Positions 3,584 through 26,362 of a stretch of 64,000 nt of DNA are shown here, in pieces. The translations under genes were made by a program, and so were the position numbers. Every line of letters starts with the position of its first letter. Within the stretch, counting starts at the first letter, position 1. The notes below the pieces were generated by a model that worked only from the letters and a program-made list of their open reading frames with translations, made no database searches and was not told the origin of the DNA. Source of the DNA: an uncultured Methanosarcinales archaeon (GTDB lineage Archaea; Nanobdellota; Nanobdellia; Woesearchaeales; JAGLXL01); the NCBI GenBank assembly GCA_964384425.1, contig CAYLKE010000002.1:10365-74364 (forward strand), in the 5' to 3' direction.

Positions 3584-3584
3584 A

Positions 3585-7854: not shown

Positions 7855-7865
7855 TTTAACCCTAT

Positions 7866-8495
7866 TTATTTCTTTTCAAAAACCATAACTAAATTTTGTC
7901 CAAATAACAAATTTTTAATTGGTAAGTTTATATGAATTAATGGTGTAACGCTTCTATTGAATGTTATTTTCTTAATTTTAAACAATTTTCTGACAAGCAT
8001 TTTAATTTGCCAAGTAAAAGTAGGAGTAATATGTGGTTCAAACCAATCTCTATCTTTTCCATACAATTTACCTTGAAAACTAGGAAATTTTCCAGTAAAT
8101 AAAAAGAATAACCTACTAAACCAATTTTGACTATTTGGTGTTGTAACAATTAATTTACCTTTTTCATTAAGCATATTATATGCATCAACAAATAATTTCT
8201 TGGAATTGTATATGTGTTCAATAACTTCTGTACAAATAACCATATCATATTTTTGTTTTATTTTAATTTCTTTATTCAAGTCAACCTTTAAACATTTAAT
8301 ATCAGAAGCACGATTAATAGAAGGATTAATATCTGTTGCAGTAATATCAAATCCTAGTTTATTTAATTTTAAAGGTACTCCACCATACCCACTACCCAAA
8401 TCAATAATTTTTTTTGGTTTATAATATTTAACTAATTTAACAACTGTTTCATGAAGATACTTTGATGCTCTTCTGTATTTTCTAGATTCTTTCAT
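7866..8495 (-). CDS. Class I SAM-dependent methyltransferase
   Basis: Motif I is IIDLGSGYGG, followed by an acidic post-I segment and the DMVICTEVIEHI motif. Its start overlaps the upstream gene's stop by 4 nt. Confidence 0.8.
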   Translation of the reverse strand: MKESRKYRRASKYLHETVVKLVKYYKPKKIIDLGSGYGGVPLKLNKLGFDITATDINPSINRASDIKCLKVDLNKEIKIKQKYDMVICTEVIEHIYNSKKLFVDAYNMLNEKGKLIVTTPNSQNWFSRLFFLFTGKFPSFQGKLYGKDRDWFEPHITPTFTWQIKMLVRKLFKIKKITFNRSVTPLIHINLPIKNLLFGQNLVMVFEKK

Positions 8496-10754: not shown

Positions 10755-10769
10755 TTTTCTTTCCTCTAT

Positions 10770-12068
10770 TTATTTCTCTGGTATTAACCTTAATATCTCC
10801 TTAATAGATAAGCAGTGTTCTCCTGCTTCATGACATCTTTCATTTGTTAAAATAGATTCAGCAGTTCTTACCATAGATGGATAAGCACTTCTAAGAAGAT
10901 GGTTAGCGTAAATAACAACACTTATTCCTGCTTTATTTAATTCCTTTTCTGAAATATGTCCATATGCAGTTGGAACTGCAATCAATGGAATTTTATTTTC
11001 AAATTGATTATATCTTTTACAAAATTCCATTAGTTCTGCTGTATCTGAATCTTTACTATGAATCATTATTGCATCAGCTCCCGCATTGATGTATGAATTT
11101 GCTCTAATCAAAGCATCTTCAACACCTTTTTTTAAAATAAGACTTTCAATTCTAGCGATAACCATAAAATCATCAGTAATTTGTGCTTTTTTACCAAGGG
11201 TTATCTTTTGTGAAAAAGCTTGAACAGTATCTTGTGTTTGTTGAACATCTGTTCCAAAAAGGGAATTTTTCTTTGCCCCAATTTTATCCTCTATAATGAC
11301 AGCAGAAACCCCCAATCTTTCTAATGTTTTAACCATAAAAGTAAAATGTTCTGGCAATCCTCCATTATCCCCATCAACAATTAATGGTTTAGTTGTTACT
11401 TCGAAAACTTCATTAATGGTATTAGTTCTAGATGAAAAATCAACACAACCAGTATCAGGTTTTCCTTTTGCAGTTGAATCTGTCAAACTACTTAGCCACA
11501 TTGCGTCAAATTCTTTAATTTTAACACCATCATTTATTTTTGTAGTTTCAACAATTCTTCCTGTTAGCCCATTATGGACTTCTAAAACTCTAACAATATC
11601 TTTTAATTCAAGCAATCTTCTAAGTTTCTTTCTTCTTACTTCTGGAGTTGTTCCTTTGTCAACAACATGTTTAATTATTTTTGTAGATGAAATATCTGGT
11701 GTGTATTCTGGTTCAACTAATTCTCCATCCCATTCTTTTAATGTTTCGATAACTCTTTCTCTTGTCTTTTTCTGAACACCTTCTCTCCAATCTGTTCCAT
11801 GAACAACATAATCTGGTTTTAATAATTTTAAGTTAGGAACATAATCTAATGTGTCTTGAGGAATTACACTTGTAACTCCTTTGATATTTTCAATAACTGC
11901 TTTTCTTTTTTCATAATCTAAAAAAGGAATTCTTTTGTAACTTGCAATTGCTTTATCTGTAAGAAGACCTATAGTTACATTACCTAACTTTCTAGCTTCT
12001 TTAATGATATTCAAATGGCCATGATGTATTATATCTCCACACATCCCAATATATACTTTTTTTGTCAT
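10770..12068 (-). CDS. pepM: Fusion protein: HxGH-type cytidylyltransferase (TagD/ECT-like) plus phosphoenolpyruvate mutase
   Basis: The N-terminal part has GDIIHHGH and ISSTKII, which are cytidylyltransferase signatures. The C-terminal part has [21 protein letters not shown] and the PepM-discriminating EDKX5NS motif ([10 protein letters not shown], nt 11262-11291). Confidence 0.9.
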
Positions 12069-12649
12069 TTTTTTTCACCACCTTTATGTATTTTAAATAT
12101 TTTTTTGATTATGTTTTCTGTTGATAATTTTTCATAGAATTCTGGTTGTACAATCTTTGCATTAATTTCTTTTATATATTTTTTTCCAGGAATATTTTGC
12201 CAATTAGAACCATAAATAACTATAACTTCAGCATTAGGAAATTGATTTTTAATTTTTCTTAAATTTTCAGTAGGATCAAATTCATTTTGATTCATAACCA
12301 TATCAACACACTGTAATGCAGATACAATGTTTTTTCTTTCTTTAAAATCAGCAATAGGTTCTTCTTTATATGTCTTTATTGCTTCATTTGTTAAAACCCC
12401 ACATATATGAAAATCTCCTAATTCATTTGCTTTTTGCAATAATCTTAAATGTCCATAATGAAATAAATCTGCAGTAACAGATGAGTAAACTATTGTTTTA
12501 GTTTTAATTTTTTCAATATCAACTACTTCCCCTTCTTTTATACCAGAATTCTTTGGAATTGTAACACACAATTGCCCATTTGATTTATTTATCCATATTT
12601 GTTTTTTCATATATAACATCCCATTTACTATTAACACTAGTATTAACAT
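12065..12649 (-). CDS. Cytidylyltransferase-family protein with N-terminal AbrB/SpoVT-like segment
   Basis: It has ADLFHYGH (HxGH) and LSTENII motifs. The N-terminal [18 protein letters not shown] resembles a swapped-hairpin AbrB domain. An alternative ATG at 12610 (MKKQIW) may be the true start. Confidence 0.7.
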
Positions 12650-12695: not shown

Positions 12696-13994
12696 TTAAA
12701 GTAATTTATTTACGTAATTAAGAACATCATCCAAAGTATTATCTTCACCTTCAGACTTAATCTTAACAGGCTTAACAATCTTATTTATTTTATCAAATAT
12801 TTTCTCTTGCCTATATAAATCTTCAATAGGATGATCTTTTTTTCTAACAAATAGGATCTGAGGATCATTGTATAGGTAAAATGTTATTGTTGGTTTTGGA
12901 AAAAACCAAAATAAAAATCTCTTTAAAAACATAGGAACTTTATTTGTTAATAGTACGTCTGTTGTATATCTATCTGTTATAACAAAATCATGTGTTTTTC
13001 TTGCAGGAAATATTTTGAAAAAATATCTTAATAACAAATCAAATGCAAAAACAGGAGCAGCCAAAGTATGGATTATACTAAATTTTTTCCTTCCCTTGCC
13101 TTCTGCACCCAAACTTGTTTTTCCACCTATTTTTTTATACCTCTTACCAAAAAAATGAATAGGAAGAATATTATTTCTTCCCCTACCAGTATAAATTCTT
13201 TTTACTTTAAAATTATTTTTTTTAAGTACTTGTATGAAATTATTTGAAGTTGTTGTTTTACCACTTCCATCCATTCCTATGAATGCAATCAAAGGCTTAC
13301 TTTTTCTAAACCAATTTAATTTCCATAATCCTCCAAAAAAATATAATCTGAATATCCAATACAATTTAAAGGGATAATTTTTAATAAAATAATTGTAAAT
13401 ATTTCTAGCCTCTTTCTCAATTAATTCATATCTATGTTTTTTAATATTGTTAATAACAAATATAGAATATTTTCTTCCAATTTTTTTATTTAATATCTTT
13501 TCAATATAATCCCAATTAATATTTTCTTTTTTTAATCTTTCAATATCATCTATGTAATCTTTTCTAAATCTTTTTTTATCTAAAATACTATGTAACAAAA
13601 TAATTAATAATTCATCATTAAAAGAACTAACATAAAAAAAACCTATTTTTCTTTTATGTTTTAATATATTTTTTGAATCTAAATATCTTAAATTACTACC
13701 TGTTATCCCATCAACATGTATATGAAAAAACAATCTTTTCTTTTCTTTAACAAAAAATTTATGGTACCCTAAATGATTAGAAAATGGATTTATGGGAATT
13801 CTCTTAAAATTAAAATTCTCAAATATTTTCTTAATTTTAGCTACATCTTTTCTCTCCACACAGAGATCAATGTCTTTTCCATCATATATCTTGTTTTCTA
13901 ATAAAAAGCCATAATTTCTAGAAATAACATATCTCACATTGTTTTTCTCAAAATTATCCAAAACTTTTTTAATCTCTTTTATGAATTCAATCAT
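12696..13994 (-). CDS. Fusion protein: N-terminal Pol-beta-type nucleotidyltransferase-like domain plus C-terminal thymidylate-kinase-like P-loop kinase
   Basis: The N-terminal part has a GKDIDLCV NTase-like acidic motif. The C-terminal part has Walker A GMDGSGKTT and a DRY segment (ITDRYTTD) like dTMP kinases. Confidence 0.5.
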   Translation of the reverse strand: MIEFIKEIKKVLDNFEKNNVRYVISRNYGFLLENKIYDGKDIDLCVERKDVAKIKKIFENFNFKRIPINPFSNHLGYHKFFVKEKKRLFFHIHVDGITGSNLRYLDSKNILKHKRKIGFFYVSSFNDELLIILLHSILDKKRFRKDYIDDIERLKKENINWDYIEKILNKKIGRKYSIFVINNIKKHRYELIEKEARNIYNYFIKNYPFKLYWIFRLYFFGGLWKLNWFRKSKPLIAFIGMDGSGKTTTSNNFIQVLKKNNFKVKRIYTGRGRNNILPIHFFGKRYKKIGGKTSLGAEGKGRKKFSIIHTLAAPVFAFDLLLRYFFKIFPARKTHDFVITDRYTTDVLLTNKVPMFLKRFLFWFFPKPTITFYLYNDPQILFVRKKDHPIEDLYRQEKIFDKINKIVKPVKIKSEGEDNTLDDVLNYVNKLL

Positions 13995-14046: not shown

Positions 14047-15516
14047 ATGGACAAATATAAGAAAATATCTTGGGAATTTTTTACATCTTATTTACTGCAA
14101 GGACTCAGTGTTTTATTAGGTTTTTTGGCATTTCCTATTATTACAAGATATTTGACTGTTAAAGAATATGGTTTTTATTCTGTTCTTATTGTAACATTTA
14201 CTTTAATAATTAGTAGTATTGATTTTGGACTTAAGAACTTTATTCAAAGAGATTTAACTTCCAAATCTGAAAAATATAAATTAAATAAAATGTCTATATT
14301 CAATACTTTTTTTTTAATCACTTCAGGTATTTACATCTTATTATTTGTAATATTTCAAATAATTAATTATATCTTTTTGTCTATTGATATGTATTTAGTT
14401 ACATATTTTTTCTTTTCAATGATTTTTGCAAATTATTTTGGAATATTTAGTTTTTATCTAACATCTAGAATAGAATTAATAAAAAGTAAGATTCTAAATT
14501 TTTTAAATGCTGATTTATGGTTAATCATACTTATAGTATTTATTATATTTTCATCTAAATTAACAATAAAAAGTATTTTCATAATTAAACTGCTTGCATC
14601 AGTCCTAAGTTTGATTTTCATCATATTAATTATAAAAAATAAGAATAAAATATTCACATTTAAATTCAATAAAAAATATTTGGTTAAAGCATTAGAATAC
14701 TCATTTCCTTTTGTTCCTATGTTAATATCACAATGGGTTATAACCGCTAGTGACAGATATTTAATAAAAATTTTTTCTAATAATACTCAACTAGGATATT
14801 ACTCATACATATATACTCTTGTTGCTTTTATTTCAATTACTGGAAAACAGATATCTTCAATATTATTAACTTACATAATAGAAGCTAAAAATAAAAAAGA
14901 TCATGCTAAAAGTAACTTTTTATTTAATGCGAACTTAAAGTATTCTTTGATGATAGTTATTCCTGGTATTTTGGGATTATTAATTTTAAGAAAAGAAATT
15001 GTTATATTATTATCAGGAACAAAATATTTACCAGCATTATACGTTTTACCAATACTTTTATTTTATCCCTTATTCAGAATAATCAACATAAATTTTCAAA
15101 GTATATTGATGATTCAAAACAAAACAAAATTGATTAGTAAAATCTATATTGTTGGCATGGTACTAAATATCATATTAAATTTTGTTCTTGTTCCTTTTTA
15201 TGGAATTCTGGGGGCTTCTATTGCCACAATTACAACATATTTTTTGATGACGATAATGTTTTATTCTATATCAAAAAAATACTTTAAACCATTTTATCGC
15301 TTTAATTTTAAATTTTTACGTATTGAAAGAATAATATTTTCATCATTACTAATGGCAGCAGTGTTATTTTTTATAGAACCAACAACCCCTATAGCTAAAA
15401 TATCAACAATATTTTTTGGAGCAGGAATTTATTTTTTTTTGTTATTAATAACAGGATTCTTTATCAAAGACGAATTGTCACTAATTAAAAATCTCATTAA
15501 ATCACCTTTTTATTAA
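14047..15516 (+). CDS. Polysaccharide/oligosaccharide flippase (MOP superfamily, Wzx-like)
   Basis: The 489-aa protein has roughly 12-14 hydrophobic helices, and its length and topology are typical of Wzx/MurJ-like flippases. It lies inside the glycan island. Confidence 0.65.
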   Translation: MDKYKKISWEFFTSYLLQGLSVLLGFLAFPIITRYLTVKEYGFYSVLIVTFTLIISSIDFGLKNFIQRDLTSKSEKYKLNKMSIFNTFFLITSGIYILLFVIFQIINYIFLSIDMYLVTYFFFSMIFANYFGIFSFYLTSRIELIKSKILNFLNADLWLIILIVFIIFSSKLTIKSIFIIKLLASVLSLIFIILIIKNKNKIFTFKFNKKYLVKALEYSFPFVPMLISQWVITASDRYLIKIFSNNTQLGYYSYIYTLVAFISITGKQISSILLTYIIEAKNKKDHAKSNFLFNANLKYSLMIVIPGILGLLILRKEIVILLSGTKYLPALYVLPILLFYPLFRIININFQSILMIQNKTKLISKIYIVGMVLNIILNFVLVPFYGILGASIATITTYFLMTIMFYSISKKYFKPFYRFNFKFLRIERIIFSSLLMAAVLFFIEPTTPIAKISTIFFGAGIYFFLLLITGFFIKDELSLIKNLIKSPFY

Positions 15517-15567
15517 ATGACATAAGAAAAGATAGAAGAATATTCAATAAATATAATAAAATAAGAA

Positions 15568-16455
15568 TTAATAAAAAAAATTCTGGAAGTAAACAACCCC
15601 CACCATATAAACTCCCCATAACATAACATTCAACACCATCATCTTATCTTTTAAGAATATCATTGTAGGGGATTCTGCTTTGTCAGACATAAGAGTTAAA
15701 TATACATACCTCATAAGTCCATAAAAGACAAATAAGAAAGATGCAGCAAGAAGATGAGCATTAACACTTAATCTGTTCTCTAAACACCATAGTAAATAAA
15801 TTGTTAATGTAAGTCCTGCAGAAAACACCAACATCATCTTAAGAAAATCTAGATTATATTTCTTCAAGACTTCTCTTTTATGTTCATCATTTCTTACAAG
15901 TTCAGAATATCTTTTAGCTATTGTAATCATAATAGCTAATGTGAATGTGACTGCTAATATCCAAGGACTAATTCCAACATTTATTGCAAATATCCCTGCT
16001 AACACCCTTAACACATAACCTGTTGAAACAACAACCAAATCCAATATAACTTCATTTTTTAACCATAAACTATAAAATATATTTATAAAAATATACAATA
16101 AGATAATACTCCATACTAATTTATTAATAAAATAAGAAAAAACTATTGAAAAAACAAATAAAAACAAAATTAAAATATAACCTTGCCACATCTTAACCTT
16201 TCCAGAAGCCAATGGCCGCGTTCTTTTTTTAGGATGTTTTTTATCATATTCTACATCGATAAAATCATTAAAAACATAAACACCAGAACTAGTCAAACAA
16301 AAAACAGCAAATACAATCAAAGATAAGATAATTTTATCTTGAACAAATAAATTACCAGAAAAAACCAATCCGCCAAATACAAAGAAATTTTTAATCCATT
16401 GATGTGGACGCATTAGTTTTACAAAATCTTTAATTACCATTAACCTATTAATCAT
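15568..16455 (-). CDS. UbiA-family polyprenyl-phosphate phosphoribosyltransferase (Rv3806c/DPPR-synthase-like)
   Basis: It has the motif series RPHQWIKN, NDFIDVEYDKKHPKKRTRPLASG, YVLRVLAG and AKRYSEL in the same order as I recall for mycobacterial decaprenyl-phosphate phosphoribosyltransferase. Confidence 0.7.
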   Translation of the reverse strand: MINRLMVIKDFVKLMRPHQWIKNFFVFGGLVFSGNLFVQDKIILSLIVFAVFCLTSSGVYVFNDFIDVEYDKKHPKKRTRPLASGKVKMWQGYILILFLFVFSIVFSYFINKLVWSIILLYIFINIFYSLWLKNEVILDLVVVSTGYVLRVLAGIFAINVGISPWILAVTFTLAIMITIAKRYSELVRNDEHKREVLKKYNLDFLKMMLVFSAGLTLTIYLLWCLENRLSVNAHLLAASFLFVFYGLMRYVYLTLMSDKAESPTMIFLKDKMMVLNVMLWGVYMVGVVYFQNFFY

Positions 16456-16517
16456 AATAATTTTTATAAATATTATTAAAAATAAACATAACTACTAGAA
16501 AATGGGTGATGGATGAA

Positions 16518-16523
16518 GGAGGT
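16518..16523 (+). promoter_or_regulatory. Shine-Dalgarno site (GGAGGT) for the SDR gene at 16529
   Basis: GGAGGT lies 5 nt upstream of the ATG and is complementary to the archaeal 16S 3' end (..AUCACCUCC). Confidence 0.5.
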
Positions 16524-16528
16524 CAGAT

Positions 16529-17572
16529 ATGAAAAAAACATTAGCAATCACAGGAGGAGCTGGTTTCTTAGGATACCATCTTTGTAATCATTTAAAAAAT
16601 AAATATAAAGAAATAAGAGTTATTGATAGACAAAAACTAAATCCAAATGAATATCCAAAAAATGTTAAATTTTACAACTTTGACATTAGAGATCACAAAG
16701 ATCTTGTAAAGGCATTCGAAGGAGTGGATGAAATAATTCATGCCGCAGCTGCTCTTCCGTTATGGAAGAAAAAAGAGATTTATTCTGTAAATGTTAAAGG
16801 AACAAAAAGTGTTCTTGACGCTGCTATGAAAAATAAAATCAAAAGAATGGTTCTTATATCTTCAACAGCAGTTTATGGTGTTCCAGATAAACATCCACTT
16901 TATGAAAATGATAAATTAATTGGAGTAGGTCCTTATGGAATTACAAAAATTAAAAAAGAAAAACTTGCAGACAGATACAGAAAAAAAGGAATGTTTATCA
17001 CAACAATTCGTCCAAAAACATTTATTGGAACAGGAAGACTAGGTGTTTTCCAAATTTTATATGATTGGGTAGAAAGTGGAACCAAAATACCTATAATTGG
17101 AAAAGGAAAAAATAGATATCAGTTATTGGAAGTAACTGATTTATGCGAAGCAATTTATTTATCATTAAAATCAAGAAACAAAAAAGCTAATGGGGTGTTT
17201 AACATTGGAGCAGATAACTTTGGAACTGTAAAACATGATGTAGGGGCATTATGTGAATATGCAAGCAATGGATCTCGAACATTATCATTTCCAGTTTGGA
17301 TGGTTTTGCCAGTGTTAGAAGTTGCATGGTGGTTCAGAATGTCTCCTTTATACAAATGGGTTTATGGAACAGCATATAAAGATTCATTTGTATCAGTAGA
17401 TAAAGCAAAGGAAATTCTTAAATGGAAACCTAAATATAGTAATGCAGAAGCTTTAATCAGATCATATGAATGGTATTTAGAACATAAAGACGAACTTAAG
17501 GGAGAAGAAGGAGTTACTCACAGAGTTGCTTGGAAACAAGGAATATTAGGAATAGCTAAGAAATTTTTGTAA
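16529..17572 (+). CDS. NAD-dependent epimerase/dehydratase (extended SDR, 3-beta-HSD-like)
   Basis: It has the TGGAGFLG Rossmann motif and a YGITK catalytic YxxxK. Confidence 0.8.
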   Translation: MKKTLAITGGAGFLGYHLCNHLKNKYKEIRVIDRQKLNPNEYPKNVKFYNFDIRDHKDLVKAFEGVDEIIHAAAALPLWKKKEIYSVNVKGTKSVLDAAMKNKIKRMVLISSTAVYGVPDKHPLYENDKLIGVGPYGITKIKKEKLADRYRKKGMFITTIRPKTFIGTGRLGVFQILYDWVESGTKIPIIGKGKNRYQLLEVTDLCEAIYLSLKSRNKKANGVFNIGADNFGTVKHDVGALCEYASNGSRTLSFPVWMVLPVLEVAWWFRMSPLYKWVYGTAYKDSFVSVDKAKEILKWKPKYSNAEALIRSYEWYLEHKDELKGEEGVTHRVAWKQGILGIAKKFL

Positions 17573-17573
17573 A

Positions 17574-18062
17574 ATGAATATTAAAAAAATAATAAAATTC
17601 AGTGAAAGAATATTTGATGTGTTTATGAAAGACTTTTCATCAATAGGAAGTATGGTTTTCTATGGGTTGGTTATGATTATGTTTTTTATATTAGAATTTT
17701 ACAAAATAAGTTTATTTCTTTTGTTGAGTTTTATTTTATTGTCATCGATTACAATTATTATTAGATCAATTTATTTTAAAACTCGTCCTAATGTAATGAA
17801 ACACAATTCATTCTTTGAAAGACTAGATGCTTCATCTTTTCCAAGTGTACATTCTGCAAGAATTATTGTATTGTTTTTAACATATTTATTTTTCTTTGAA
17901 ATTAATTTATCTATTACAATAGTTTTAGGAGCAATAACATTATGTGTTCTGTATAGCAGAATCTATCTCAAAAAACATTATTTGATTGATGTGGTGTTTG
18001 GGGTTTTGAATGGATTTGTTGTGGGAGTTATTGTTAATTATTTGGTAGGGAAATTATTATGA
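17574..18062 (+). CDS. PAP2-family (type 2 phosphatidic acid phosphatase) membrane phosphatase
   Basis: All three PAP2 motifs are present: KTRP, PSVHS and SRIYLKKHYLID. Confidence 0.85.
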   Translation: MNIKKIIKFSERIFDVFMKDFSSIGSMVFYGLVMIMFFILEFYKISLFLLLSFILLSSITIIIRSIYFKTRPNVMKHNSFFERLDASSFPSVHSARIIVLFLTYLFFFEINLSITIVLGAITLCVLYSRIYLKKHYLIDVVFGVLNGFVVGVIVNYLVGKLL

Positions 18063-19336
18063 AAAAGATAATGATTTTAGGTGGAGGTTTAAGTGGTTTA
18101 GCTGCTGCATTAAAATTAAAAAAAGCAAATAACAACTTAGATATAACTCTTCTTGAGAAAAAACCATTTTTTGGAGGATTAGCAGCATCATTCAAACATA
18201 AAGAATATGAAATACCTTACTTCTACCACCACATAATTGAAAGCAATCATCTTACAAAAGAATATTTAAAAAAATATGAGTTATTGAAAGGATGTAAATG
18301 GTCTCCTATAAAAATGGCTATTGGAAATAAAGGCAAGCTTTTCAATATTAACTCTATAAAAGGACTATTAACATATAATGGGCTTTCATTATGGGGGAAA
18401 TTTAGATTTGGATTATTTGGATTATATGTGATATTTTTAATGAATCCTTCCAAATTAGATGGAAAATTAAATGCAGAAAAATGGCTATCAAAGTATGCTG
18501 GAAAAGAAGTAACTAAAAAAATCTTTTATAACTTACAAGCAAGAAATAAATTTAACATACCTCTAAGTGATATATCGGCGAAACAACTAGCAAATAGATT
18601 AAATGAAAAAGAAATTTATGATAAATTTACATATCCAAAAAAAGGATTAAATAAATTAATTGATGGAATGGTAAATGATGCTAAGAAATTAGGCATAAAA
18701 GTTCTTGATAATGTTAATATAAAAAAAATTAATCTAAAAACTAAGAAAATAGAATACAAAAAAATGAGAAAAAGAGAAAAAGAAAATTATGATATATTGA
18801 TAAATACTATTCCTGTTCAGGAATTTTCAAAAATATCAAATCTTCCAACAGAATATAATAAAAAAATGAATTCTGTTAAATATTGTCCAGCAGTTGTTAT
18901 AATATTTGGTACAGAAAAATTTCTGGATAAAAAACATTATTGGATAAATCTATTTAATGAACAACCCCACATAATAATGCAACATTCAATATTATGTGAT
19001 AAATATCCTTGGAAAGTTAGTTGGATACTTAGATATGGGGGAAGTGAAGAAGATCTTGATAAGAGTGATAAACAGATAAAAGAAGAATATTTTAAATCTC
19101 TTAAAAAATATTTTCCTTCTGTAAAAATTAAATGGGCTAAAGTTTTTAGAGAGAAATATGGTGAACCAATTTATGATAAGAATTATTCTAAATATATGCC
19201 ACACCATAGAACACCAGTCAAAGATTTGTATATGTCTGGAATACAAGTAACATATCCAAAAATTAGGAATATGAACATTGCATTGAAAAGTGGAGAAAAT
19301 GTTGCAAAGATTGTGTTGAAAGATCTGAATAAATAA
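18059..19336 (+). CDS. FAD/NAD(P)-binding oxidoreductase (amine-oxidase / UDP-galactopyranose-mutase-like Rossmann class)
   Basis: The N-terminal ILGGGLSGLAAA dinucleotide-binding motif is followed by LEKKPFFGGLA. Its start overlaps the PAP2 stop by 4 nt. Confidence 0.7.
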   Translation: MKKIMILGGGLSGLAAALKLKKANNNLDITLLEKKPFFGGLAASFKHKEYEIPYFYHHIIESNHLTKEYLKKYELLKGCKWSPIKMAIGNKGKLFNINSIKGLLTYNGLSLWGKFRFGLFGLYVIFLMNPSKLDGKLNAEKWLSKYAGKEVTKKIFYNLQARNKFNIPLSDISAKQLANRLNEKEIYDKFTYPKKGLNKLIDGMVNDAKKLGIKVLDNVNIKKINLKTKKIEYKKMRKREKENYDILINTIPVQEFSKISNLPTEYNKKMNSVKYCPAVVIIFGTEKFLDKKHYWINLFNEQPHIIMQHSILCDKYPWKVSWILRYGGSEEDLDKSDKQIKEEYFKSLKKYFPSVKIKWAKVFREKYGEPIYDKNYSKYMPHHRTPVKDLYMSGIQVTYPKIRNMNIALKSGENVAKIVLKDLNK

Positions 19337-19355
19337 AATAATTTCAATAATTAAA

Positions 19356-20294
19356 ATGAAAAATAGAAAAATAATTATCACTGGAGGAGCAGGAGAAGTT
19401 GGATTAAATCTCATAAACCTTATTAATAAGAAAAAATATCAGGTAATTGTTATTGATAAGAATAAACACAATATTAATATTGCAAAAAAGATATCTTCAA
19501 ATATTGATTGTTATTGTTATGATCTTTCAAAAAAGGGAGAATGGGAAGATTTGTTCAAGAATGCGTATTGTGTTGTTCAATTGCAAGCCCAAATATCTTC
19601 ATCTTACAAAAAACCTTACATAAAGAATAATATTCATTCAGTTAGAAATGTTGTGGAAGTATGTGAAAAAAATAAAATAAAGAATTTAATTCATTTGAGT
19701 TCTTCTGTTGTGATATCTGTTGCAAAAGATCATTACACCAATACAAAAAGAATAGGGGAAGAAATTGTTAAAAAAAGTAACGTCCCCCACATAATATTAA
19801 GGCCTTCGTTAATGTATGGTTGTTTTGATATAAAACATTTGGGATTTTTAAAAAAATTCTTTTTTTCACCAATATATCCTATTCCTGGAAGTGGCAAATA
19901 TATCAGACAACCTTTATTTGTAGAAGACATGTGTAATGTTATTATTAATTCTATCGAAAAGAAAAAAGACAATAGTATTCATAATATTATTGGAAAAGAA
20001 AGAATCTATTTCATAAATCTTCTTAGATTATTAGCAAAGAAATTAAATAAAAAAATAATTTTTTTCCCTTTACCTTTACCAGCATTTAATATAATGTTAA
20101 AATTTTATAGTTCATTATTTTCAAAAAACCCATTGATACCAGAACAATTAACAGCATTAATGGCAGGAGACAGATTTCCAGTAAGTGATTGGGACAAAGT
20201 TTTTAATGTTGAGTATACTCCTTATAAAAAAGGTTTAAAAAAGATGATTGAATCTCCTTATTTTGAATATGGTAAAATGATGAAAAAAGATTAA
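19356..20294 (+). CDS. NAD-dependent epimerase/reductase (SDR family)
   Basis: It has a TGGAGEVG Rossmann motif and a YTNTK YxxxK segment. Confidence 0.7.
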   Translation: MKNRKIIITGGAGEVGLNLINLINKKKYQVIVIDKNKHNINIAKKISSNIDCYCYDLSKKGEWEDLFKNAYCVVQLQAQISSSYKKPYIKNNIHSVRNVVEVCEKNKIKNLIHLSSSVVISVAKDHYTNTKRIGEEIVKKSNVPHIILRPSLMYGCFDIKHLGFLKKFFFSPIYPIPGSGKYIRQPLFVEDMCNVIINSIEKKKDNSIHNIIGKERIYFINLLRLLAKKLNKKIIFFPLPLPAFNIMLKFYSSLFSKNPLIPEQLTALMAGDRFPVSDWDKVFNVEYTPYKKGLKKMIESPYFEYGKMMKKD

Positions 20295-20296
20295 AA

Positions 20297-22042
20297 ATGT
20301 TTAATAAAAAAATAAAAAAAATATTGTTGGGAGTAATTATTTTAGCACTACTTTACTTAATATTTAATTTTGCACAATTAACACTTAGTTATAAGCATCT
20401 TCCTGGTCCTGTATATGGAGGAGATGTTTATAGAGATAGAGGTTTTATACAAAGTATTGTTGTTGGATTTGATGCACAGGATGATGGTTATTTTCTGAAT
20501 CATGCACAGTATTATAATTGGGGTATGTCATTTGTTTTAGGTAATGTGATAAAATTATTTAACTTAAATATTGAACAATCTATGCTATGGTTTGCTTTTT
20601 TTATTTATTTGGGATGTATAACAATGTATTATTTTATTGGAAAAGAAGTTTTTGGAACAAGATTAAAAGCTAGCTTGGTTTCATTACTTGGAGCAATATG
20701 GTTTATTTATCCTTCAGTAAAATTTACTCAATCAGCCAATTTACTATTGTTAATTTCAATTTATTTTTTATTCAAATATATAAATACTAAAAAAGGAAAA
20801 TATAATTACTATTCTGGTTCAATTATTGCTTTTTGTGGTTTGATATATGGGGCAACATATTTTCCTTATCTCTTTTTTTATGCCATTTGGAATTTAATTG
20901 AAGTAATTAAATTATTTAGAAAAGATTTGAAAGAAAAGATTAAATTATCTTATTCAAAGATTAAGAAGTATTTTGTTTATATCATACCTACAGCTATTGC
21001 AGGAATTATTCCATTTGTTATACATTATCTTCCTTTAATGTTAAGGTATGGATCACATAATCCAAATCCTGTCTATGAGTATGGAGATATTGCAATTGAA
21101 AATTATAATATTTTTTATGTTGCATTAAATGAATTAAAAAAATTTTTTAATGTATCTCATTGGGTTCTGTTCTGTTTAGGAATATTGGCATTATTAGGAT
21201 TACTTTTATTTATGATAACAAAAGGGAATAAATCATCTTTTTTCAAAAAATATTATTTCTTAAATTTTATCCCTCAATTACACCATTATATCACAAAACC
21301 CTTAATGGGAAAATGGTTTTTTCCACATAAAATGGGAATAAAGCATTTTATTTTTCCAATATTTATTGTTAAATCTATAGATATATCAAAATTATTTAAA
21401 AAATACAAAAAAATGCCACAAATTTTATTCCTAATTATATTGGTACTTTCATTAATTTATATACCAATTAAAATAAATCAACATGAAAGTAGTAAATGGG
21501 TTAAATATGGTCAACAAATGGATCCATCCACACAGATGATTTATGATGTTGGAAATTACTTAAAAATTATAATAAATAATAATGAAACCATTTTAGCTAA
21601 TGATGAAACATCTTTTGCATTGATGGCTTTATCAGGTAAAAAAGTTGTTATAAGTAGAAGAACTCATGCCAGTTATTATGTTGATATTGATAAAAGAATA
21701 GCTGACACAGCAATAATATTATATGGTAACAATAGTAAATTGAGAAAAGACTTGTTAAACAAATATAAGACCAATTATTTTTATGAAGATCAATTTTTAC
21801 ATTCTACACAAATGAATACTCGAGTTGAATTTTCTAATTATTTAAGTGAAAATGGCGTTAATTTTACAATAAAGAAAATACCTATTGATCCTGCAACAAC
21901 AATTTATTATGGAACAGTTTACGAAAGAATAATAATTATGCCAAGGGAATTGAATGAAAATTTTATTAAAATGTTAAAACCAGTAAGACAATTTAAAATA
22001 AATTCACAAATTGCCTCAGTTCTTTACAGAATAAATAACTAA
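20297..22042 (+). CDS. Large polytopic membrane protein, candidate GT-C-fold glycosyltransferase
   Basis: It has about 10-12 hydrophobic helices in the first 400 aa or so, an acidic first loop (FDAQDDGY) and a C-terminal soluble domain of about 170 aa. It is the last gene of the operon, 2 nt after the SDR. No family-specific motif was recognised. Confidence 0.4.
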   Translation: MFNKKIKKILLGVIILALLYLIFNFAQLTLSYKHLPGPVYGGDVYRDRGFIQSIVVGFDAQDDGYFLNHAQYYNWGMSFVLGNVIKLFNLNIEQSMLWFAFFIYLGCITMYYFIGKEVFGTRLKASLVSLLGAIWFIYPSVKFTQSANLLLLISIYFLFKYINTKKGKYNYYSGSIIAFCGLIYGATYFPYLFFYAIWNLIEVIKLFRKDLKEKIKLSYSKIKKYFVYIIPTAIAGIIPFVIHYLPLMLRYGSHNPNPVYEYGDIAIENYNIFYVALNELKKFFNVSHWVLFCLGILALLGLLLFMITKGNKSSFFKKYYFLNFIPQLHHYITKPLMGKWFFPHKMGIKHFIFPIFIVKSIDISKLFKKYKKMPQILFLIILVLSLIYIPIKINQHESSKWVKYGQQMDPSTQMIYDVGNYLKIIINNNETILANDETSFALMALSGKKVVISRRTHASYYVDIDKRIADTAIILYGNNSKLRKDLLNKYKTNYFYEDQFLHSTQMNTRVEFSNYLSENGVNFTIKKIPIDPATTIYYGTVYERIIIMPRELNENFIKMLKPVRQFKINSQIASVLYRINN

Positions 22043-24220: not shown

Positions 24221-26362
24221 TTAAACTCCTAACAACCCCAATATATCGTCCCCATATTTCATTATCTTTGTGGGACCCAGTCCATGAATTTCTTTAAGTT
24301 CATCTTTTGAAGAAGGCATTTTTTGCGCTATATCAAGAATTGTTTTGTCATTAAATATAATATATGCTGGTGTGTTCATTTGCTGGCTTAAATCTCTTCT
24401 CCAATCTTTTAAACGTTGCATAACATCAAGCATTGTTATATTTGTAGATCTATTAAGTGCTTTATTTTTTCTTAATTTTATTTCAGGAGCTTTTATTTTC
24501 TGTTTTTTCTTTTTCAGTATATTTTGCATTTCATCTGTTATAAAGTAAGTTGGAGATTTTGTTGAATATGTTATATATAAATTATCTTTTGCTCTTGACA
24601 TAGCAACATAAAATAATCTTTTTTCTTCCTCTTCTTTATCATATTCATCAACCTTAATAAGATCAACAACAGGATGCTCACTTGCTTTACATGGAAAATT
24701 CATTGCACTAGCACCTATTACAAAAACAACTTTTGCTTCTAATCCTTTTATTGCATGAACTGTTGCAAGAGTTACATCGTCTTTTGATGCCATCACACTT
24801 CTTCTAGTTTCATCAGAACGCACAATATGTTTTATATTATGTGCTTTTAAATAAACAGAAAGTTCATTTAATTGCTTATTTGTTCGAGCTAAAACAAATA
24901 TTTCAGAACGAGGTATGTTTGTTGAGAGTATCTTTCCAACAATAAATTCAAATTCTTCATTTTCTGAATTAAATTTTAAGAGATGTGTATCTTTTTCTCC
25001 ATCTCTTATTGATTCCAAATCATTTAATCCCAAAGATGATATGCTTTTGTTAATCAAATTAACAATATGTTTATTGGAACGATAATTTTTTGTTAGAGTC
25101 ACAATTTCACAATCAGGATATTTATCTTCAAAATTCATTATATATCCTATATCTGATCCTCTCCAACCATAAATTGATTGTCTTGGATCTCCAACACAAA
25201 AAAGATTTTTTGAATTAAGTGTATCTAATAGTTTTATCTGTGTTGAATTTACATCTTGATATTCATCTACAAGAATATGTTCAAATTGAGGAATAGTTTC
25301 AGGATGTGTTTCAAATAATCTAAGAACATCTATTAATTGATCTGCAAAATCTCTTAATCCTTTTTCTTTCATATAATCTTCTATAAAATTACACACCCCA
25401 TAAACGAGATTAACTGCACCAGCATGTTTTGAATCTTGCACAATAAAACTTTCTCTAGAAACAGGTTTATGTTTAAATTTAAGATAGTCTCTTATAAAAA
25501 AACAATCATTCATAAATATATTTGCAAGTTGATCTTGTGTTTTTGATTTTCTTTGGGCATAAGTAAAATAGATATTTATTGCTCTTCCCATATCAAGATT
25601 TATTGAATTAAGAGCTTTTTTTGTCATTATTATCTTATCCCTATAATTAATAACTTTCATTGTTCTATCATAAAGAAGATCATTATGTTTTCTCAACAAT
25701 TTTTCACAGAATGAATTAAATGTTTCAACACGAACTTTTTCCATCCCATTCATTTCAGATATTCTTTTAAGCATCTCACTTCTTGCTTTTCTTGTAAATG
25801 TTATTGCTAATATTTTATTAGAGTCTACTGATCTGTATTTTGAAAGAAATTGTATTCTTTTTGTAAGGACTGTTGTTTTTCCACTTCCTGCTCCTGCAAT
25901 ACATAAAACCTTATCATTGCAAGATATTATTGCTTTCTTTTGTTCATCATTGTATTTCCCTAAGAAATGATCAAGTGCTTTGAAAAGTTCTCTATCTTTT
26001 TCAGTTATTTCTGTTTTTATTTCCTTACAACTAAATGCAAGTTTCTTTTTGTAATGTTGAGGATTAGATATTTCTTTTATTCCTTTGTTTGTGAGTTGTA
26101 ATACTTTCAAGTATTTGTTATATGGTACTGAAATAAATCTTATTAATCCATTCATTAAAAGATTATCTACAAGATGCATAAGTTCATCTTGCTCATATGC
26201 CATACATCCAAATGAAGGCTTTTTATCTAAACTATTTCTTGTAATAGAAGAATTACTTTTATCTCCCCTAAGAAAATCAACTAAAAGCTTCTTTCCAACA
26301 TTAAATGGAAGCTCATTTAATGCTTTTAATATATTAAGATAGTCTAACTCTTTTTTTTGCAT
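24221..26362 (-). CDS. UvrD/PcrA-family SF1 helicase with N-terminal winged-helix and C-terminal HRDC domain
   Basis: It has Walker A AGAGSGKTT, DEYQD, NYRS, VHAIKGLEA and MSRAK helicase motifs. The C-terminal WRRDLSQQMNTPAYIIFNDKTILDIA...GLG segment is HRDC-like. Confidence 0.85.
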   Translation of the reverse strand: MQKKELDYLNILKALNELPFNVGKKLLVDFLRGDKSNSSITRNSLDKKPSFGCMAYEQDELMHLVDNLLMNGLIRFISVPYNKYLKVLQLTNKGIKEISNPQHYKKKLAFSCKEIKTEITEKDRELFKALDHFLGKYNDEQKKAIISCNDKVLCIAGAGSGKTTVLTKRIQFLSKYRSVDSNKILAITFTRKARSEMLKRISEMNGMEKVRVETFNSFCEKLLRKHNDLLYDRTMKVINYRDKIIMTKKALNSINLDMGRAINIYFTYAQRKSKTQDQLANIFMNDCFFIRDYLKFKHKPVSRESFIVQDSKHAGAVNLVYGVCNFIEDYMKEKGLRDFADQLIDVLRLFETHPETIPQFEHILVDEYQDVNSTQIKLLDTLNSKNLFCVGDPRQSIYGWRGSDIGYIMNFEDKYPDCEIVTLTKNYRSNKHIVNLINKSISSLGLNDLESIRDGEKDTHLLKFNSENEEFEFIVGKILSTNIPRSEIFVLARTNKQLNELSVYLKAHNIKHIVRSDETRRSVMASKDDVTLATVHAIKGLEAKVVFVIGASAMNFPCKASEHPVVDLIKVDEYDKEEEEKRLFYVAMSRAKDNLYITYSTKSPTYFITDEMQNILKKKKQKIKAPEIKLRKNKALNRSTNITMLDVMQRLKDWRRDLSQQMNTPAYIIFNDKTILDIAQKMPSSKDELKEIHGLGPTKIMKYGDDILGLLGV

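Follow-up and report, generated by a model that had tools for sequence, protein, structure and literature searches.

Gene content of the locus

The 64-kb stretch of DNA analyzed here, hereafter the window, derives from a DPANN archaeon; that the host is archaeal is shown by large and small RFC subunits scoring above the NCBIfam cut-offs and by the further archaeal markers NMD3, HerA/TrmB and an intein-bearing CDC48. Six genes between positions 15,568 and 22,042 form the module of interest. A 295-aa UbiA-fold protein, predicted to be a polyprenyl/dolichyl-phosphate 5-phosphoribosyltransferase (PPPRS/DPPRS type), is encoded on the minus strand (15,568–16,455), and a 73-nt intergenic region (16,456–16,528), which from its position presumably holds both promoters, separates it from a divergent five-gene operon on the plus strand. 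The operon encodes a GalE-like extended short-chain dehydrogenase/epimerase (SDR1, 347 aa; 16,529–17,572), a PAP2 membrane phosphatase (162 aa; 17,574–18,062), an FAD flavoenzyme of the phytoene-desaturase (PDS), protoporphyrinogen-oxidase (PPO) and amine-oxidase superfamily (425 aa; 18,059–19,336), an extended/atypical, NDUFA9-like SDR (SDR2, 312 aa; 19,356–20,294) and a 581-aa predicted GT-C-fold glycosyltransferase (20,297–22,042). The ORF coordinates give junctions of +1, -4, +19 and +2 nt, in that order, and all six ORFs are arranged as the original prediction described. Pfam searches recovered the UbiA, Epimerase (twice), PAP2 and Amino_oxidase families.

The six genes stood as the extent of that prediction, which missed an adjacent gene: the unit of function probably reaches further left, to positions 14,047–15,516 (plus strand), where a 489-aa MOP superfamily protein of the Wzx/Polysacc_synt type (PF01943, PF13440) is encoded convergently with the UbiA gene across a 51-nt spacer. 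This protein matches HfsF weakly among NCBIfam models. A bacterial three-component system uses a MATE/MOP flippase (PMC11127046), on the analogy of which this protein is a candidate flippase for the lipid-linked sugar.

A phosphoribosyltransferase-type UbiA protein

The motifs RPHQWIKN, NDFIDVEYDKKHPKKRTRPLASG, YVLRVLAG and AKRY, on which a likeness to Rv3806c had been proposed, are all found in the translation of the UbiA gene. The protein scores 208.3, 200.7 and 152 bits against the NCBIfam DPPRS models, narrowly below the equivalog cut-offs (208 vs 234; 200.7 vs 207), and only 21–54 bits against the DGGGPS, UbiA, MenA-type, CyoE and ChlG models. It thus groups with phosphoribosyltransferases and not with DGGGP synthases, as predicted, with a DGGGPS score about five-fold lower than that for DPPRS (~39 bits vs 208 for NF008977). 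Its best PDB match is Rv3806c (8j8j; E-value 4e-36, full length); the runner-up has an E-value of 7e-4.

The residues of Rv3806c that we mapped bind the pyrophosphate, Mg, ribose and 5'-phosphate of PRPP (PMC10994848). The window protein is identical at 10 of these 12 PRPP-site positions (R22, K28, Y70, N73, D77, K87, R90, Y138, K143 and Y157, in Rv3806c numbering) and carries substitutions at the other two (Q135 to N, K208 to E). Across 35 DPANN homologues, nine of the 12 are invariant (R22, K28, Y70, N73, D77, K87, Y138) or vary only between K and R (R90, K143); at position 157 the window protein has Y, whereas the remaining 34 have F. The DPPRS models are also the best match for six UbiA proteins of other modules. 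Against this, the window protein shares only ~29% identity with the UbiA proteins of otherwise orthologous modules. By its sequence, then, this is predicted to be a phosphoribosyltransferase-type member of the UbiA family.

The phosphatase and the redox enzymes

The PAP2 protein (Pfam PAP2, 50.9 bits; best PDB match LpxE, E-value 2e-7) contains the three motifs ascribed to it, RSIYFKTRP, PSVH and SRIYLKKHYLID, and is a candidate 5'-phosphatase acting on lipid-P-ribose-5-P. Both SDRs carry the expected TGGAGxxG and YxxxK motifs. SDR1 (Pfam Epimerase, 137.7 bits; TGGAGFLG, YGITK) has its best PDB sequence matches in GalE, MoeE5 and sterol-4-alpha-carboxylate 3-dehydrogenase, and SDR2 (Epimerase, 71.9 bits; TGGAGEVG, YTNTK) in the NDUFA9 subunits of complex I. 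Neither qualifies as DprE2, both being of the extended, GalE-like type.

The flavoenzyme matches the Pfam families Amino_oxidase and NAD_binding_8, contains the Rossmann motif GGGLSG noted earlier, and scores 254.6 bits (cut-off 252) against NCBIfam NF005560, a model named 'hypothetical protein'. Its AF2 model (pLDDT 92.1) is closest in Foldseek to rice PDS (5mog, TM 0.83) and PPO (2ivd, 0.80), followed by the UDP-galactopyranose mutases (UGMs) 4dsg and 3ukh (0.75–0.79, with 4dsg at 0.79). At least 120 DPANN homologues share at least 49% identity with it, and the relatives recovered are from DPANN only. The enzyme is not DprE1, which has a VAO fold, and the anticipated difference in fold class is borne out. 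For the most part, known members of the PDS/PPO superfamily carry out the dehydrogenation of C-C or C-N bonds or the isomerization of lipophilic substrates, and oxidation of sugar alcohols is not typical of them; a DprE1-like role would therefore be one of analogy, not homology. The known Araf route needs DprE1/E2 and the Xylf route a single SDR, so that two redox partners are more than either requires. On all three counts, the fold of the flavoenzyme, the GalE/NDUFA9-like extended SDRs and the presence of two redox partners instead of one, the specific DprE1/DprE2 reading is without support.

A GT-C fold in the 581-aa protein

The 581-aa protein has no sequence match in Pfam, NCBIfam or the PDB. 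Its AF2 model (pLDDT 92.2, pTM 0.90), with ~11 TM helices and an extracytoplasmic C-terminal domain, is of the GT-C fold, in line with the original prediction: Foldseek against the PDB gives the best E-values for STT3/PglB/AglB (about 3e-9), the best TM-score for AftA (8if8_B, 0.60/0.57), and further matches to DPY19, ArnT and AftD. The residues D43, N257, H329, W401, E437, K449, R454, R455, H457, D463 and R467 are invariant, and the family numbers 324 cluster representatives at E ≤ 1e-30. The acidic DAQDDG of the first loop, highlighted previously, is present at residues 59–64 but conserved in part only; the invariant acidic residue is D43, which lies in the first outer loop after TM1.

The likeness to STT3/AglB/PglB extends to the C-terminal domain, which resembles the C-terminal globular domain of AglB (3vu0), and to W401-x-x-Y-G, which follows the last TM helix at the place of the STT3 WWDYG motif; in several relatives, moreover, the GT-C gene lies directly downstream of STT3. 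However, the protein lacks a PF02516 match and does not conserve the Asp of WWDYG, and its own set of conserved residues (GGD43, H329, E437 ... R467) is distinct. By these defining motifs the protein is not an N-oligosaccharyltransferase.

Conservation and exchange of parts

The module recurs in 52 other DPANN species-level loci, and such recurrence of the same partners takes the arrangement far beyond chance. Twenty-seven of these loci are well flanked, with at least 6 kb on either side of the FAD gene, whose product is the module's constant redox component. Among them, 24 have a UbiA gene (24/27 at no more than 10 kb from the flavoenzyme gene), 24 have a redox partner, 22 encode a GT-C-type protein and six have STT3. 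Although the flavoenzyme has the phytoene-desaturase/PPO-type fold named at the outset as grounds for doubt, its context is thus tightly linked to the UbiA gene and not unrelated, and the idea survives.

Several components are interchangeable, which points to step functions within the module. SDR1 orthologues occur in 17 of the 52 loci, never alongside DUF362(b/c) (Fisher p = 1.3e-5), and SDR2 orthologues in 25 of 52, usually adjoining the FAD gene and never alongside DUF362(a/d) (p = 1.1e-4). DUF362 shares a Pfam clan with the LarA hydride-transfer racemases/epimerases (PMC11770544), and the exchange of SDRs for these proteins is consistent with reactions at a secondary alcohol in both redox/epimerase slots, the first filled here by SDR1 and the second by SDR2. 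PAP2 lies beside UbiA in eight related loci and a PHP-domain phosphoesterase takes that place in 10 others, never both, with one or the other found in only 17 of 34 UbiA-containing loci; a haloarchaeal genome report lists the same PHP-DPPRS-SDR neighborhood (PMC4866403). The 581-aa GT-C protein and a 448-aa GT-C-like protein homologous to it in the TM core (hhalign 95%, E-value 2.6e-8) are mutually exclusive between loci. A flippase gene adjoins the module here and in 10 of the 52 loci, and Wzx-like genes adjoin the GT-C gene in L002, L016, L022, L026, L033 and L054. AglB/STT3 is adjacent in eight of 52 loci, plus L003 and L005; the 64-kb window holds no AglB gene.

A proposed lipid-linked pentose pathway

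We suggest the following pathway. At the cytoplasmic face, the UbiA-fold enzyme would move 5-phosphoribose from PRPP to polyprenyl or dolichyl phosphate, a step strongly supported by sequence, and the PAP2 phosphatase would remove the 5'-phosphate to give lipid-P-ribofuranose, as the gene context supports. The flavoenzyme and the two extended SDRs may then retailor the ribose via keto intermediates, most likely by epimerization at C2' and/or C3' to yield Araf, Xylf or a doubly inverted pentose. The adjacent MOP/Wzx protein could flip the sugar on its lipid carrier to the outside, where the 581-aa protein, judging from its modeled fold, would pass the pentose to a surface glycan, probably an N-glycan or other envelope glycoconjugate of the surrounding glycan island. 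The lipid-P-ribose core is well supported, and synthesis of lipid-P-(phospho)ribose that feeds a GT-C enzyme is quite probable. On balance we favor action of the FAD/SDR set on the sugar over action on the lipid. Arabinofuranose as the specific product is doubtful, and the arabinose outcome originally envisaged is unsupported.

The sugar might instead be tailored without DprE1/E2-type epimerization, by a UGM-like furanose/pyranose mutase or by an ene-reductase in a deoxygenation route (SDR oxidation, elimination, flavin reduction, SDR reduction) that would yield a pyranose or deoxy-pentose donor. The two UGM structures are almost as close to the flavoenzyme model as PDS and PPO, many PDS/PPO superfamily members catalyze isomerizations with no net redox change, and two SDRs plus a flavoenzyme suit an oxidize/modify/reduce sequence better than one epimerization. 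Taken together, these two versions are nonetheless unlikely: the Pfam search of the flavoenzyme gave no UGM (GLF) match, the module has no dehydratase or aminotransferase, and the presence of LarA-clan DUF362 in place of SDRs argues for simple hydride-transfer epimerase/oxidoreductase steps.

Tailoring of the lipid carrier by the flavoenzyme and SDRs, for example by (de)saturating the isoprene units of a scavenged polyprenol to a dolichol-type carrier with a logic like that of the eukaryotic DHRSX/SRD5A3 route and with PAP2 recycling lipid phosphate, appears improbable to us. It would fit a PDS/PPO fold typical for long lipophilic substrates, the conserved hydrophobic segment at residues ~115–127 of the flavoenzyme, the similarity of SDR2 to the membrane-peripheral NDUFA9, the matches of SDR1 to sterol/lipid SDRs such as 3beta-HSD, OleD and HpnA, and the frequent adjacency of AglB, a user of dolichyl carriers. 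Yet the flavoenzyme keeps company with the phosphoribosyltransferase-type UbiA in four times as many well-flanked loci as with STT3, its recovered relatives are confined to DPANN whereas all archaea would need carrier maturation, and the LarA-clan proteins that replace the SDRs suggest reactions at carbons that bear a hydroxyl group; moreover, both readings lead one to expect a lipid substrate, because the sugar itself is lipid-linked. A conventional archaeal prenyltransferase (a DGGGP synthase or an enzyme of quinone/haem prenylation) beside an unrelated nucleotide-sugar glycan operon would accord with the generic Pfam UbiA match, the JGI annotation of several homologues as 4-hydroxybenzoate polyprenyltransferase and the nucleotide sugars that extended SDRs usually use, but is scarcely tenable given the model scores, the retention of those ligands for 5'-phosphate and ribose that are specific to Rv3806c, and the linkage of UbiA to FAD, SDR/DUF362, phosphatase and GT-C genes across the 52 species.

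Relation to known systems

The bacterial framework was generalized in 2024 as three-component pentofuranose systems, exemplified by ORF12-15 of Citrobacter youngae O1/O2 (Kelly et al., 2024; PMC11127046), which combine a PPPRS, a phosphatase, optional SDR or DprE1/E2 epimerases, a MATE flippase and a GT-C. The DPANN module is likely an archaeal variant of these polyprenyl-phosphate systems. Both would share a UbiA-fold phosphoribose synthase using PRPP and a dedicated 5'-phosphatase (here predicted from the genes), a MOP/MATE-superfamily flippase, a GT-C with an extra extracytoplasmic C-terminal domain, and GalE-like SDR epimerases, optional in such systems, that alter the pentose. In the archaeal host, by contrast, the carrier is presumably dolichyl-type; PAP2 (PHP in relatives) stands in for a fused HAD phosphatase, two SDRs and a PDS/PPO-fold flavoenzyme for none or one SDR, the GT-C is without sequence matches in Pfam, NCBIfam or the PDB, and the module sometimes adjoins AglB.

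The mycobacterial decaprenyl-phospho-arabinose pathway offers the same Rv3806c-type PRPP-site residues, a PAP2 enzyme (Rv3807c), a flavoenzyme and NAD(P)-dependent SDR available for epimerization by oxidation and reduction, and Emb/Aft GT-C transferases, of which AftA is the best TM-score match here. It differs in the VAO fold of DprE1 (vs a PDS/PPO fold with two dinucleotide-binding domains), in its classical-type DprE2 (vs two extended SDRs), in its GtrA/SMR-like flippase Rv3789 (vs a MOP type) and in its arabinose product, where the final sugar here may be Araf, Xylf or another.

An archaeal precedent is found in Haloferax volcanii, where the final N-glycan sugar is added outside from a dolichyl-phosphate monosaccharide by AglD (the Dol-P-mannose synthase), AglR (the Wzx-like flippase) and AglS (the polytopic external Dol-P-Man mannosyltransferase). 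There, a GT2 enzyme makes a hexose donor from a nucleotide sugar, without redox tailoring enzymes, whereas the donor proposed here is a PRPP-derived pentose made via a UbiA-fold enzyme.

The original interpretation is thus partly supported. Its analogy of parts, which groups a synthase of lipid-P-phosphoribose with a phosphatase, enzymes for redox tailoring and a GT-C, holds, and the idea stands, since all three comparisons that might have overturned it (the UbiA grouping, the flavoenzyme fold and context, and the GT-C fold) were run and none went against it. If it is true, a DPANN archaeon most likely builds a PRPP-derived pentose on a lipid carrier for its extracellular surface glycans, by a lipid-linked pentose pathway that, to our knowledge, has until now been reported from bacteria alone, the tuberculosis bacillus among them.

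Gene content of the module and its surroundings

In the ORF listing of the window, six ORFs lie where the original prediction placed them: a UbiA-family gene (15568–16455, minus strand, 295 aa) and, divergent from it across a 73-nt spacer, five plus-strand genes encoding SDR1 (16529–17572, 347 aa), a PAP2 protein (17574–18062, 162 aa), an FAD protein, hereafter the flavoenzyme (18059–19336, 425 aa), SDR2 (19356–20294, 312 aa), and a polytopic protein (20297–22042, 581 aa). Computed from these coordinates, the operon junctions are +1, −4, +19, and +2 nt. All motifs quoted earlier were found in the translations. The Pfam families matched are UbiA, Epimerase (twice), PAP2, and Amino_oxidase/NAD_binding_8, with no assignment for the 581-aa protein. 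A 140-aa minus-strand ORF (18992–19414) overlaps, in antisense, the FAD gene at its 3′ end and the beginning of SDR2. Its low-complexity, Ile/Phe-rich translation is as expected of an AT-rich antisense frame, and the ORF is most likely not a gene.

The window is archaeal. Its G+C content is about 25%, it encodes the large and small subunits of replication factor C (both above NCBIfam cut-offs), NMD3, HerA/TrmB, and an intein-containing CDC48, and the close homologues of the module proteins all come from DPANN MAGs. Scans of the window for tRNAs and Rfam families found nothing. Several module-bearing GTDB representative MAGs bear the title ‘uncultured Methanosarcinales archaeon’, and a further one is labeled ‘Candidatus Saccharibacteria bacterium’ (these are among the MAGs of related loci L007, L008, L010, L015, L017, L019, L022, L037, L038, and L041); gene content and similarity suggest that these titles are wrong.

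The left third of the window (1–22042) forms one surface-glycan island. In addition to the pentose module and the adjacent flippase gene (14047–15516), it holds GT4 glycosyltransferase genes (149–919, 3525–4577, and 4574–6322, the last fused to a PIG-L deacetylase), an AsnB-type amidotransferase gene (920–2749), and a nucleotidyltransferase/kinase-like gene (12696–13994). Directly upstream of the module is a minus-strand phosphonate biosynthesis cluster (6298–12649) that encodes a PEP mutase fused to an N-terminal cytidylyltransferase (10770–12068; TIGR02320, 387.8 bits, cut-off 319.55), a phosphonopyruvate decarboxylase (9618–10754; TIGR03297, 504.6 against 312.5), an Fe-alcohol dehydrogenase (8492–9625), a methyltransferase, a second cytidylyltransferase (12065–12649), and a sulfatase/LtaS-like membrane protein (6298–7854). 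These genes suggest that a CMP-activated phosphonate (hydroxyethyl- or aminoethylphosphonate) is placed on a DPANN surface glycan.

Three further minus-strand genes were noted elsewhere in the window. The CDC48/VCP-type AAA ATPase gene (57248–60907) carries an intein with a LAGLIDADG homing-endonuclease domain. A UvrD/Rep-type helicase (24221–26362) has an N-terminal RQC and a C-terminal HRDC domain, which usually go with RecQ helicases. The leucyl-tRNA synthetase (32398–35097) contains an editing-domain insertion of the bacterial type (Pfam tRNA-synt_1_2, 229 bits), in a genome that is archaeal in other respects, and this insertion may have been acquired horizontally.

The UbiA protein groups with phosphoribosyltransferases

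The UbiA protein had been likened to Rv3806c, and its scores and active-site residues place it closer to such phosphoribosyltransferases than to DGGGP synthase (DGGGPS). It has the UbiA fold (PF01040, 91 bits) and matches the NCBIfam models of decaprenyl-phosphate 5-phosphoribosyltransferase (DPPRS) NF008977, NF008978, and NF008976 at 208.3, 200.7, and 152 bits and the model NF006088, of the HAD-fused polyprenyl-phosphate 5-phosphoribosyltransferase (PPPRS) type, at 172 bits, as against just 21–54 bits for prenyltransferase models (DGGGPS, UbiA, MqnP, CyoE, and ChlG). The two highest scores fall slightly under the curated equivalog cut-offs (234 and 207, respectively) of models that have mainly bacterial sequences behind them. 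The UbiAs of six other DPANN modules likewise have DPPRS models as their best matches (173–204 bits). In the PDB, the best match is Mycobacterium tuberculosis Rv3806c, aligned end to end (E-value 4e-36), followed by chlorophyll synthase (7e-4).

Cryo-EM of Rv3806c has identified the Mg ligands (N73, D77) and the residues that bind the ribose (N73, Q135), the 5′-phosphate (K28, Y70, Y157), and the pyrophosphate (R22, K87, R90, Y138, K143, K208) of PRPP, and the phosphoribose ligands are not common to ordinary UbiA enzymes (PMC10994848). We aligned Rv3806c with the window UbiA and 34 UbiAs from related loci using MAFFT. Ten of the 12 PRPP-site residues are identical between the window protein and Rv3806c, the exceptions being Q135 (N125) and K208 (E195). 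Across the 35 DPANN sequences R22, K28, Y70, N73, D77, K87, and Y138 are invariant, the positions of R90 and K143 are always K or R, and that of Q135 is N, T, or S; the Y157 position is Y in the window and F in the other 34, as in some mycobacteria; K208 alone varies freely. Clustering with archaeal lipid prenyltransferases such as DGGGP synthase had been named as an argument against the module, and the protein does not show it: on HMM scores and active-site residues, a DGGGP synthase or other prenyltransferase is rejected. On this sequence evidence the protein is a member of the phosphoribosyltransferase type, with that enzyme activity predicted.

A non-homologous flavoenzyme with extended SDR partners

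The original prediction cast the FAD enzyme and the SDRs in DprE1/DprE2-style roles, with a different fold class already noted for the FAD enzyme. The proteins are not DprE1/DprE2 themselves, because both the fold and the SDR type differ. The flavoenzyme combines an N-terminal GxGxxG FAD-binding Rossmann fold with the Amino_oxidase fold (PF01593, 64.8 bits; PF13450, NAD_binding_8, 43 bits) and lacks the VAO/FAD_binding_4-type fold of DprE1. It belongs with NCBIfam NF005560, a family named just ‘hypothetical protein’ (254.6 bits, cut-off 252). Its structural model (pLDDT 92.1) is nearest in Foldseek to plant phytoene desaturase (5mog, TM-score 0.83) and protoporphyrinogen oxidase (0.80), followed by two archaeal structural-genomics oxidoreductases, monoamine oxidases, and eukaryotic UDP-galactopyranose mutases (0.75–0.79). 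A carotenoid-desaturase type of FAD protein in an unrelated genomic context had been named as an argument against the module; the fold is indeed of that type, and the context is not unrelated, the linkage to UbiA being conserved.

Both SDRs are of the extended Epimerase/3beta-HSD type and keep the glycine-rich loop and YxxxK, with adh_short below its Pfam cut-off (16 and 21 bits). Neither resembles DprE2 (Rv3791), a classical SDR, and no DprE2 model is among the best 25 NCBIfam matches of either protein. SDR1 is GalE-like, with GalE and MoeE5 as its nearest PDB sequences, and for SDR2 the closest PDB sequence is that of NDUFA9, a complex I subunit. The PAP2 protein (PF01569, 50.9 bits) was searched for the patterns KxxxxxxRP, PSGH, and SRxxxxxHxxxD, and all three catalytic motifs are present, as RSIYFKTRP, PSVH, and SRIYLKKHYLID. 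By sequence it is a member, at the family level, of the PAP2 lipid-phosphate phosphatases, to which Rv3807c also belongs.

The 581-aa protein has a GT-C fold

A word-index search returned just 26 homologues of the polytopic protein, whereas 324 cluster representatives (E ≤ 1e-30) came from an exhaustive profile search, none with a Pfam domain. The protein itself had no sequence match in Pfam, NCBIfam, or the PDB, which places it outside the described families represented there, among them STT3 (PF02516), PMT/PMT_2, and AftA. An AlphaFold2 model built on a 24-sequence alignment (pLDDT 92.2, pTM 0.90) contains about 11 transmembrane (TM) helices and ends in a C-terminal domain of mixed alpha/beta structure; its first outer loop holds two short helices. 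All 27 of its Foldseek matches in the PDB at E ≤ 1e-3 are GT-C enzymes, as the original prediction anticipated: eukaryotic STT3, PglB, and AglB match with E-values of about 3e-9 to 5e-6, AftA gives the best TM-scores (0.60/0.57), and DPY19, ArnT, and AftD are also matched. The C-terminal domain additionally matches the C-terminal globular domain of AglB. The modeled fold thus makes the protein a GT-C enzyme with predicted transferase activity.

The DAQDDG sequence, previously read as the acidic first loop, is a poor candidate for the catalytic site: only its D63 is moderately conserved (20/24), as against D43, in a conserved P-x-x-GGD motif right after TM1, which is present in 23 of 23 aligned homologues. 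N257, H329, W401, E437, K449, R454, R455, H457, D463, and R467 are also invariant. The segment W401-V-K-Y-G occupies the place of the STT3 WWDYG motif. The Asp position of that motif varies across the family and PF02516 has no match, so a true oligosaccharyltransferase is rejected; the protein is a relative of oligosaccharyltransferases by fold and not one of them by motifs.

Conservation and exchange of module parts

The flavoenzyme is conserved at 49–71% identity in at least 120 DPANN proteins, and an alignment scan of one genome per GTDB species recovered 52 loci, all in DPANN MAGs. We translated all ORFs of these loci, searched them with the window proteins and with DUF362, STT3, GT2, and DUF2304 proteins (from related loci L003, L005, and L006), and clustered the remaining ORFs. 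In 27 of the loci the sequence extends at least 6 kb beyond the FAD gene in both directions, and there its neighbors include UbiA in 24, at least one redox partner in 24, a GT-C-type protein in 22, a phosphatase in 13, a Wzx-like protein in 10, and STT3 in 6, co-occurrence counts that are limited by short contigs and the score thresholds used.

Four positions of the module have alternative occupants that are never found together in any of the 52 loci. The first redox slot holds SDR1 (17 loci) or a DUF362 protein of type b/c (21; Fisher p 1.3e-5), the second SDR2 (25) or DUF362 type a/d (12; p 1.1e-4), the transferase position the 581-aa GT-C (20) or a 448-aa membrane protein (15; p 1.4e-4), and the phosphatase position PAP2 (8) or a PHP-domain phosphoesterase of about 215 aa (10; p 0.33, the numbers being too small). 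Three loci combine a b/c-type DUF362 protein with SDR2, and the two redox slots are therefore independent.

DUF362 proteins (about 350 aa, in two slot-specific types) replace one or both SDRs in roughly half of the related DPANN modules (L005, L006, L008, L017, L020, L025, L028, L030, L032, L043–L045, L049, L050, L052, L053, L055, L056, and L058). To our knowledge, DUF362 has no known function. LarA-type enzymes, like GalE-type SDRs, invert hydroxyl-bearing carbons by transient hydride abstraction, and the exchange of SDRs for DUF362 proteins therefore points to oxidoreduction or epimerization at secondary alcohols in both slots. The swap pattern is thus a functional lead for DUF362, a family that shares a Pfam clan with the LarA nickel-pincer racemases/epimerases (PMC11770544). 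Relaxed Pfam scans of the DUF362 proteins revealed no second family, and sequence searches of the PDB with a DUF362 protein and the 448-aa protein, as with the 581-aa protein, gave no match.

The 448-aa protein (L012, L023, L024, L034, L036, L040, L042–L045, L048, L050, and L051) belongs to no Pfam family, has an invariant D..EY motif after TM1, and aligns to the TM core of the GT-C family (hhalign probability 95%, E-value 2.6e-8). The PHP gene (L008, L009, L025, L043, L045, L049, and L050) is flanked by UbiA on one side and by the FAD or DUF362 gene on the other. The same neighborhood, with a PHP protein, a decaprenyl-phosphate phosphoribosyltransferase, an NAD-dependent epimerase, and a 433-aa hypothetical protein, is listed in the genome paper of the haloarchaeon Halanaeroarchaeum sulfurireducens, as a PHP-DPPRS-SDR arrangement in a prophage-flanking region (HLASA_2009–2013; PMC4866403). 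In several related loci an STT3/AglB gene lies directly upstream of the GT-C gene; the 64-kb window itself contains no STT3, AglB, DUF362, PHP, 448-aa protein, or PpgS-like GT2 gene.

Other genes recur around the module. A B12-binding radical SAM protein is encoded nearby in 19 of the 52 loci and in the window about 4 kb downstream (26403–27776, minus strand), a SAM methyltransferase recurs in 17 of the 52, and SecD/SecF in 11–13. The radical SAM protein and the recurrent neighbors could reflect methylation of a glycan or lipid.

Origin of the window's UbiA

The window UbiA shares just about 29% identity with the UbiAs of DPANN modules that are orthologous in their other parts (L002–L058); those UbiAs are about 46% identical among themselves. 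Its identity is 37–41% to bacterial proteins with a DPPRS annotation (from Clostridium, Haloimpatiens, Aminicenantes, and Chitinophagaceae) and 52–55% to a few metagenome proteins, at least one of which (protein P0152, locus L061) lies on an archaeal contig without the module. These sequence relationships look like replacement of the synthase by a xenologue, a horizontally acquired counterpart, inside a conserved module, a replacement that would support functional equivalence. The Haloimpatiens relative occurs in a minimal context of UbiA and a PMT_2 GT-C, and the neighborhoods of two other bacterial relatives contain no module; these relatives do not help with the role of the flavoenzyme. A search of phage records with UbiA found a single unannotated 6.6-kb gut contig, and a search of viral contigs with the flavoenzyme found no match.

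A candidate pentofuranose pathway

In the bacterial framework, PPPRS makes undecaprenyl-P-ribose-5-P from PRPP, a phosphatase removes the 5′-phosphate, optional epimerases convert the sugar (a single GalE-like SDR to Xylf, DprE1/E2 to Araf), the donor is exported by a flippase of the MATE family, and outside the cell a GT-C attaches the pentofuranose to a completed glycan (Kelly et al., 2024, PMC11127046). All of these elements have counterparts in one block of the window (14047–22042): a MOP/Wzx protein, the PPPRS-type UbiA, PAP2, three redox enzymes, and the GT-C. The three components, PPPRS, flippase, and GT-C, are contiguous together with the putative 5′-phosphatase, and related genomes keep the linkage, although compared with the three-component prototype the phosphatase and flippase of the window come from different or wider families. 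The logic matches that of the mycobacterial and Gram-negative systems. The module differs from these in its domain of life, in its non-homologous flavoenzyme with SDR or LarA-clan partners, in its PAP2 or PHP phosphatases, and in an undescribed GT-C family related by fold to STT3 and AftA.

For the flavoenzyme, the most economical role, which we rank first, would be that of a DprE1-like sugar oxidase feeding an SDR reductase; the presence of two hydride-transfer partners might be explained by inversion at C2′ as well as C3′. Mutase or deoxygenation chemistry ranks second. Modification of the lipid chain ranks third, and the secondary-alcohol chemistry suggested for both redox slots fits sugar tailoring better than isoprenoid-chain chemistry.

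For the mechanism proposed on the bacterial framework, the analysis shows the families and folds of the proteins, the kept active-site residues, the conserved linkage, and the pattern of swaps; which substrates are used, in what order the steps run, which way the donor is flipped, and what accepts the sugar are inferred. A bolder version, which we judge rather unlikely as a whole, is a lipid-linked pentofuranose pathway, so far unrecognized, in archaea of the DPANN group and, it seems, in some haloarchaea. Dolichyl-P-ribofuranose would be made by a UbiA-fold synthase that depends on PRPP, together with a phosphatase; the phytoene-desaturase-fold flavoenzyme and two hydride-transfer enzymes, either extended SDRs or LarA-clan DUF362 proteins, would remodel it to a pentose novel in lipid-linked form, for instance a doubly epimerized lyxofuranose; and the STT3-related GT-C would add this sugar to N-glycans on the outer face.

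Significance

Lipid-linked pentofuranose donors are known from the Mycobacteriales, in which ethambutol and the benzothiazinones target them, and since 2024 they have also been recognized as a route that bacteria use generally to decorate O antigens and pilins. Full-text literature searches found no description in Archaea of a lipid-linked pentofuranose donor, of this module, or of such DPANN glycosylation, the only trace being the automatic DPPRS annotation of haloarchaeal genes. If the bolder version is correct, Archaea would have their first known pathway to a pentofuranose donor, the flavoenzyme family NF005560 its first function, and DUF362 a first role connected with sugars. With the DPANN module, the pentofuranose pathway would reach a second domain of life and be linked with the AglB N-glycosylation machinery, and DprE1 would be shown to have been replaced non-homologously by another flavoenzyme fold. 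The part swaps (SDR/DUF362, PAP2/PHP, and the two GT-C types) give testable functions to NF005560, to DUF362, and to a GT-C family of more than 300 clusters that has no Pfam model. Since hosts carry DPANN cells attached to them, the surface glycans of these archaea are likely to matter for the interaction.
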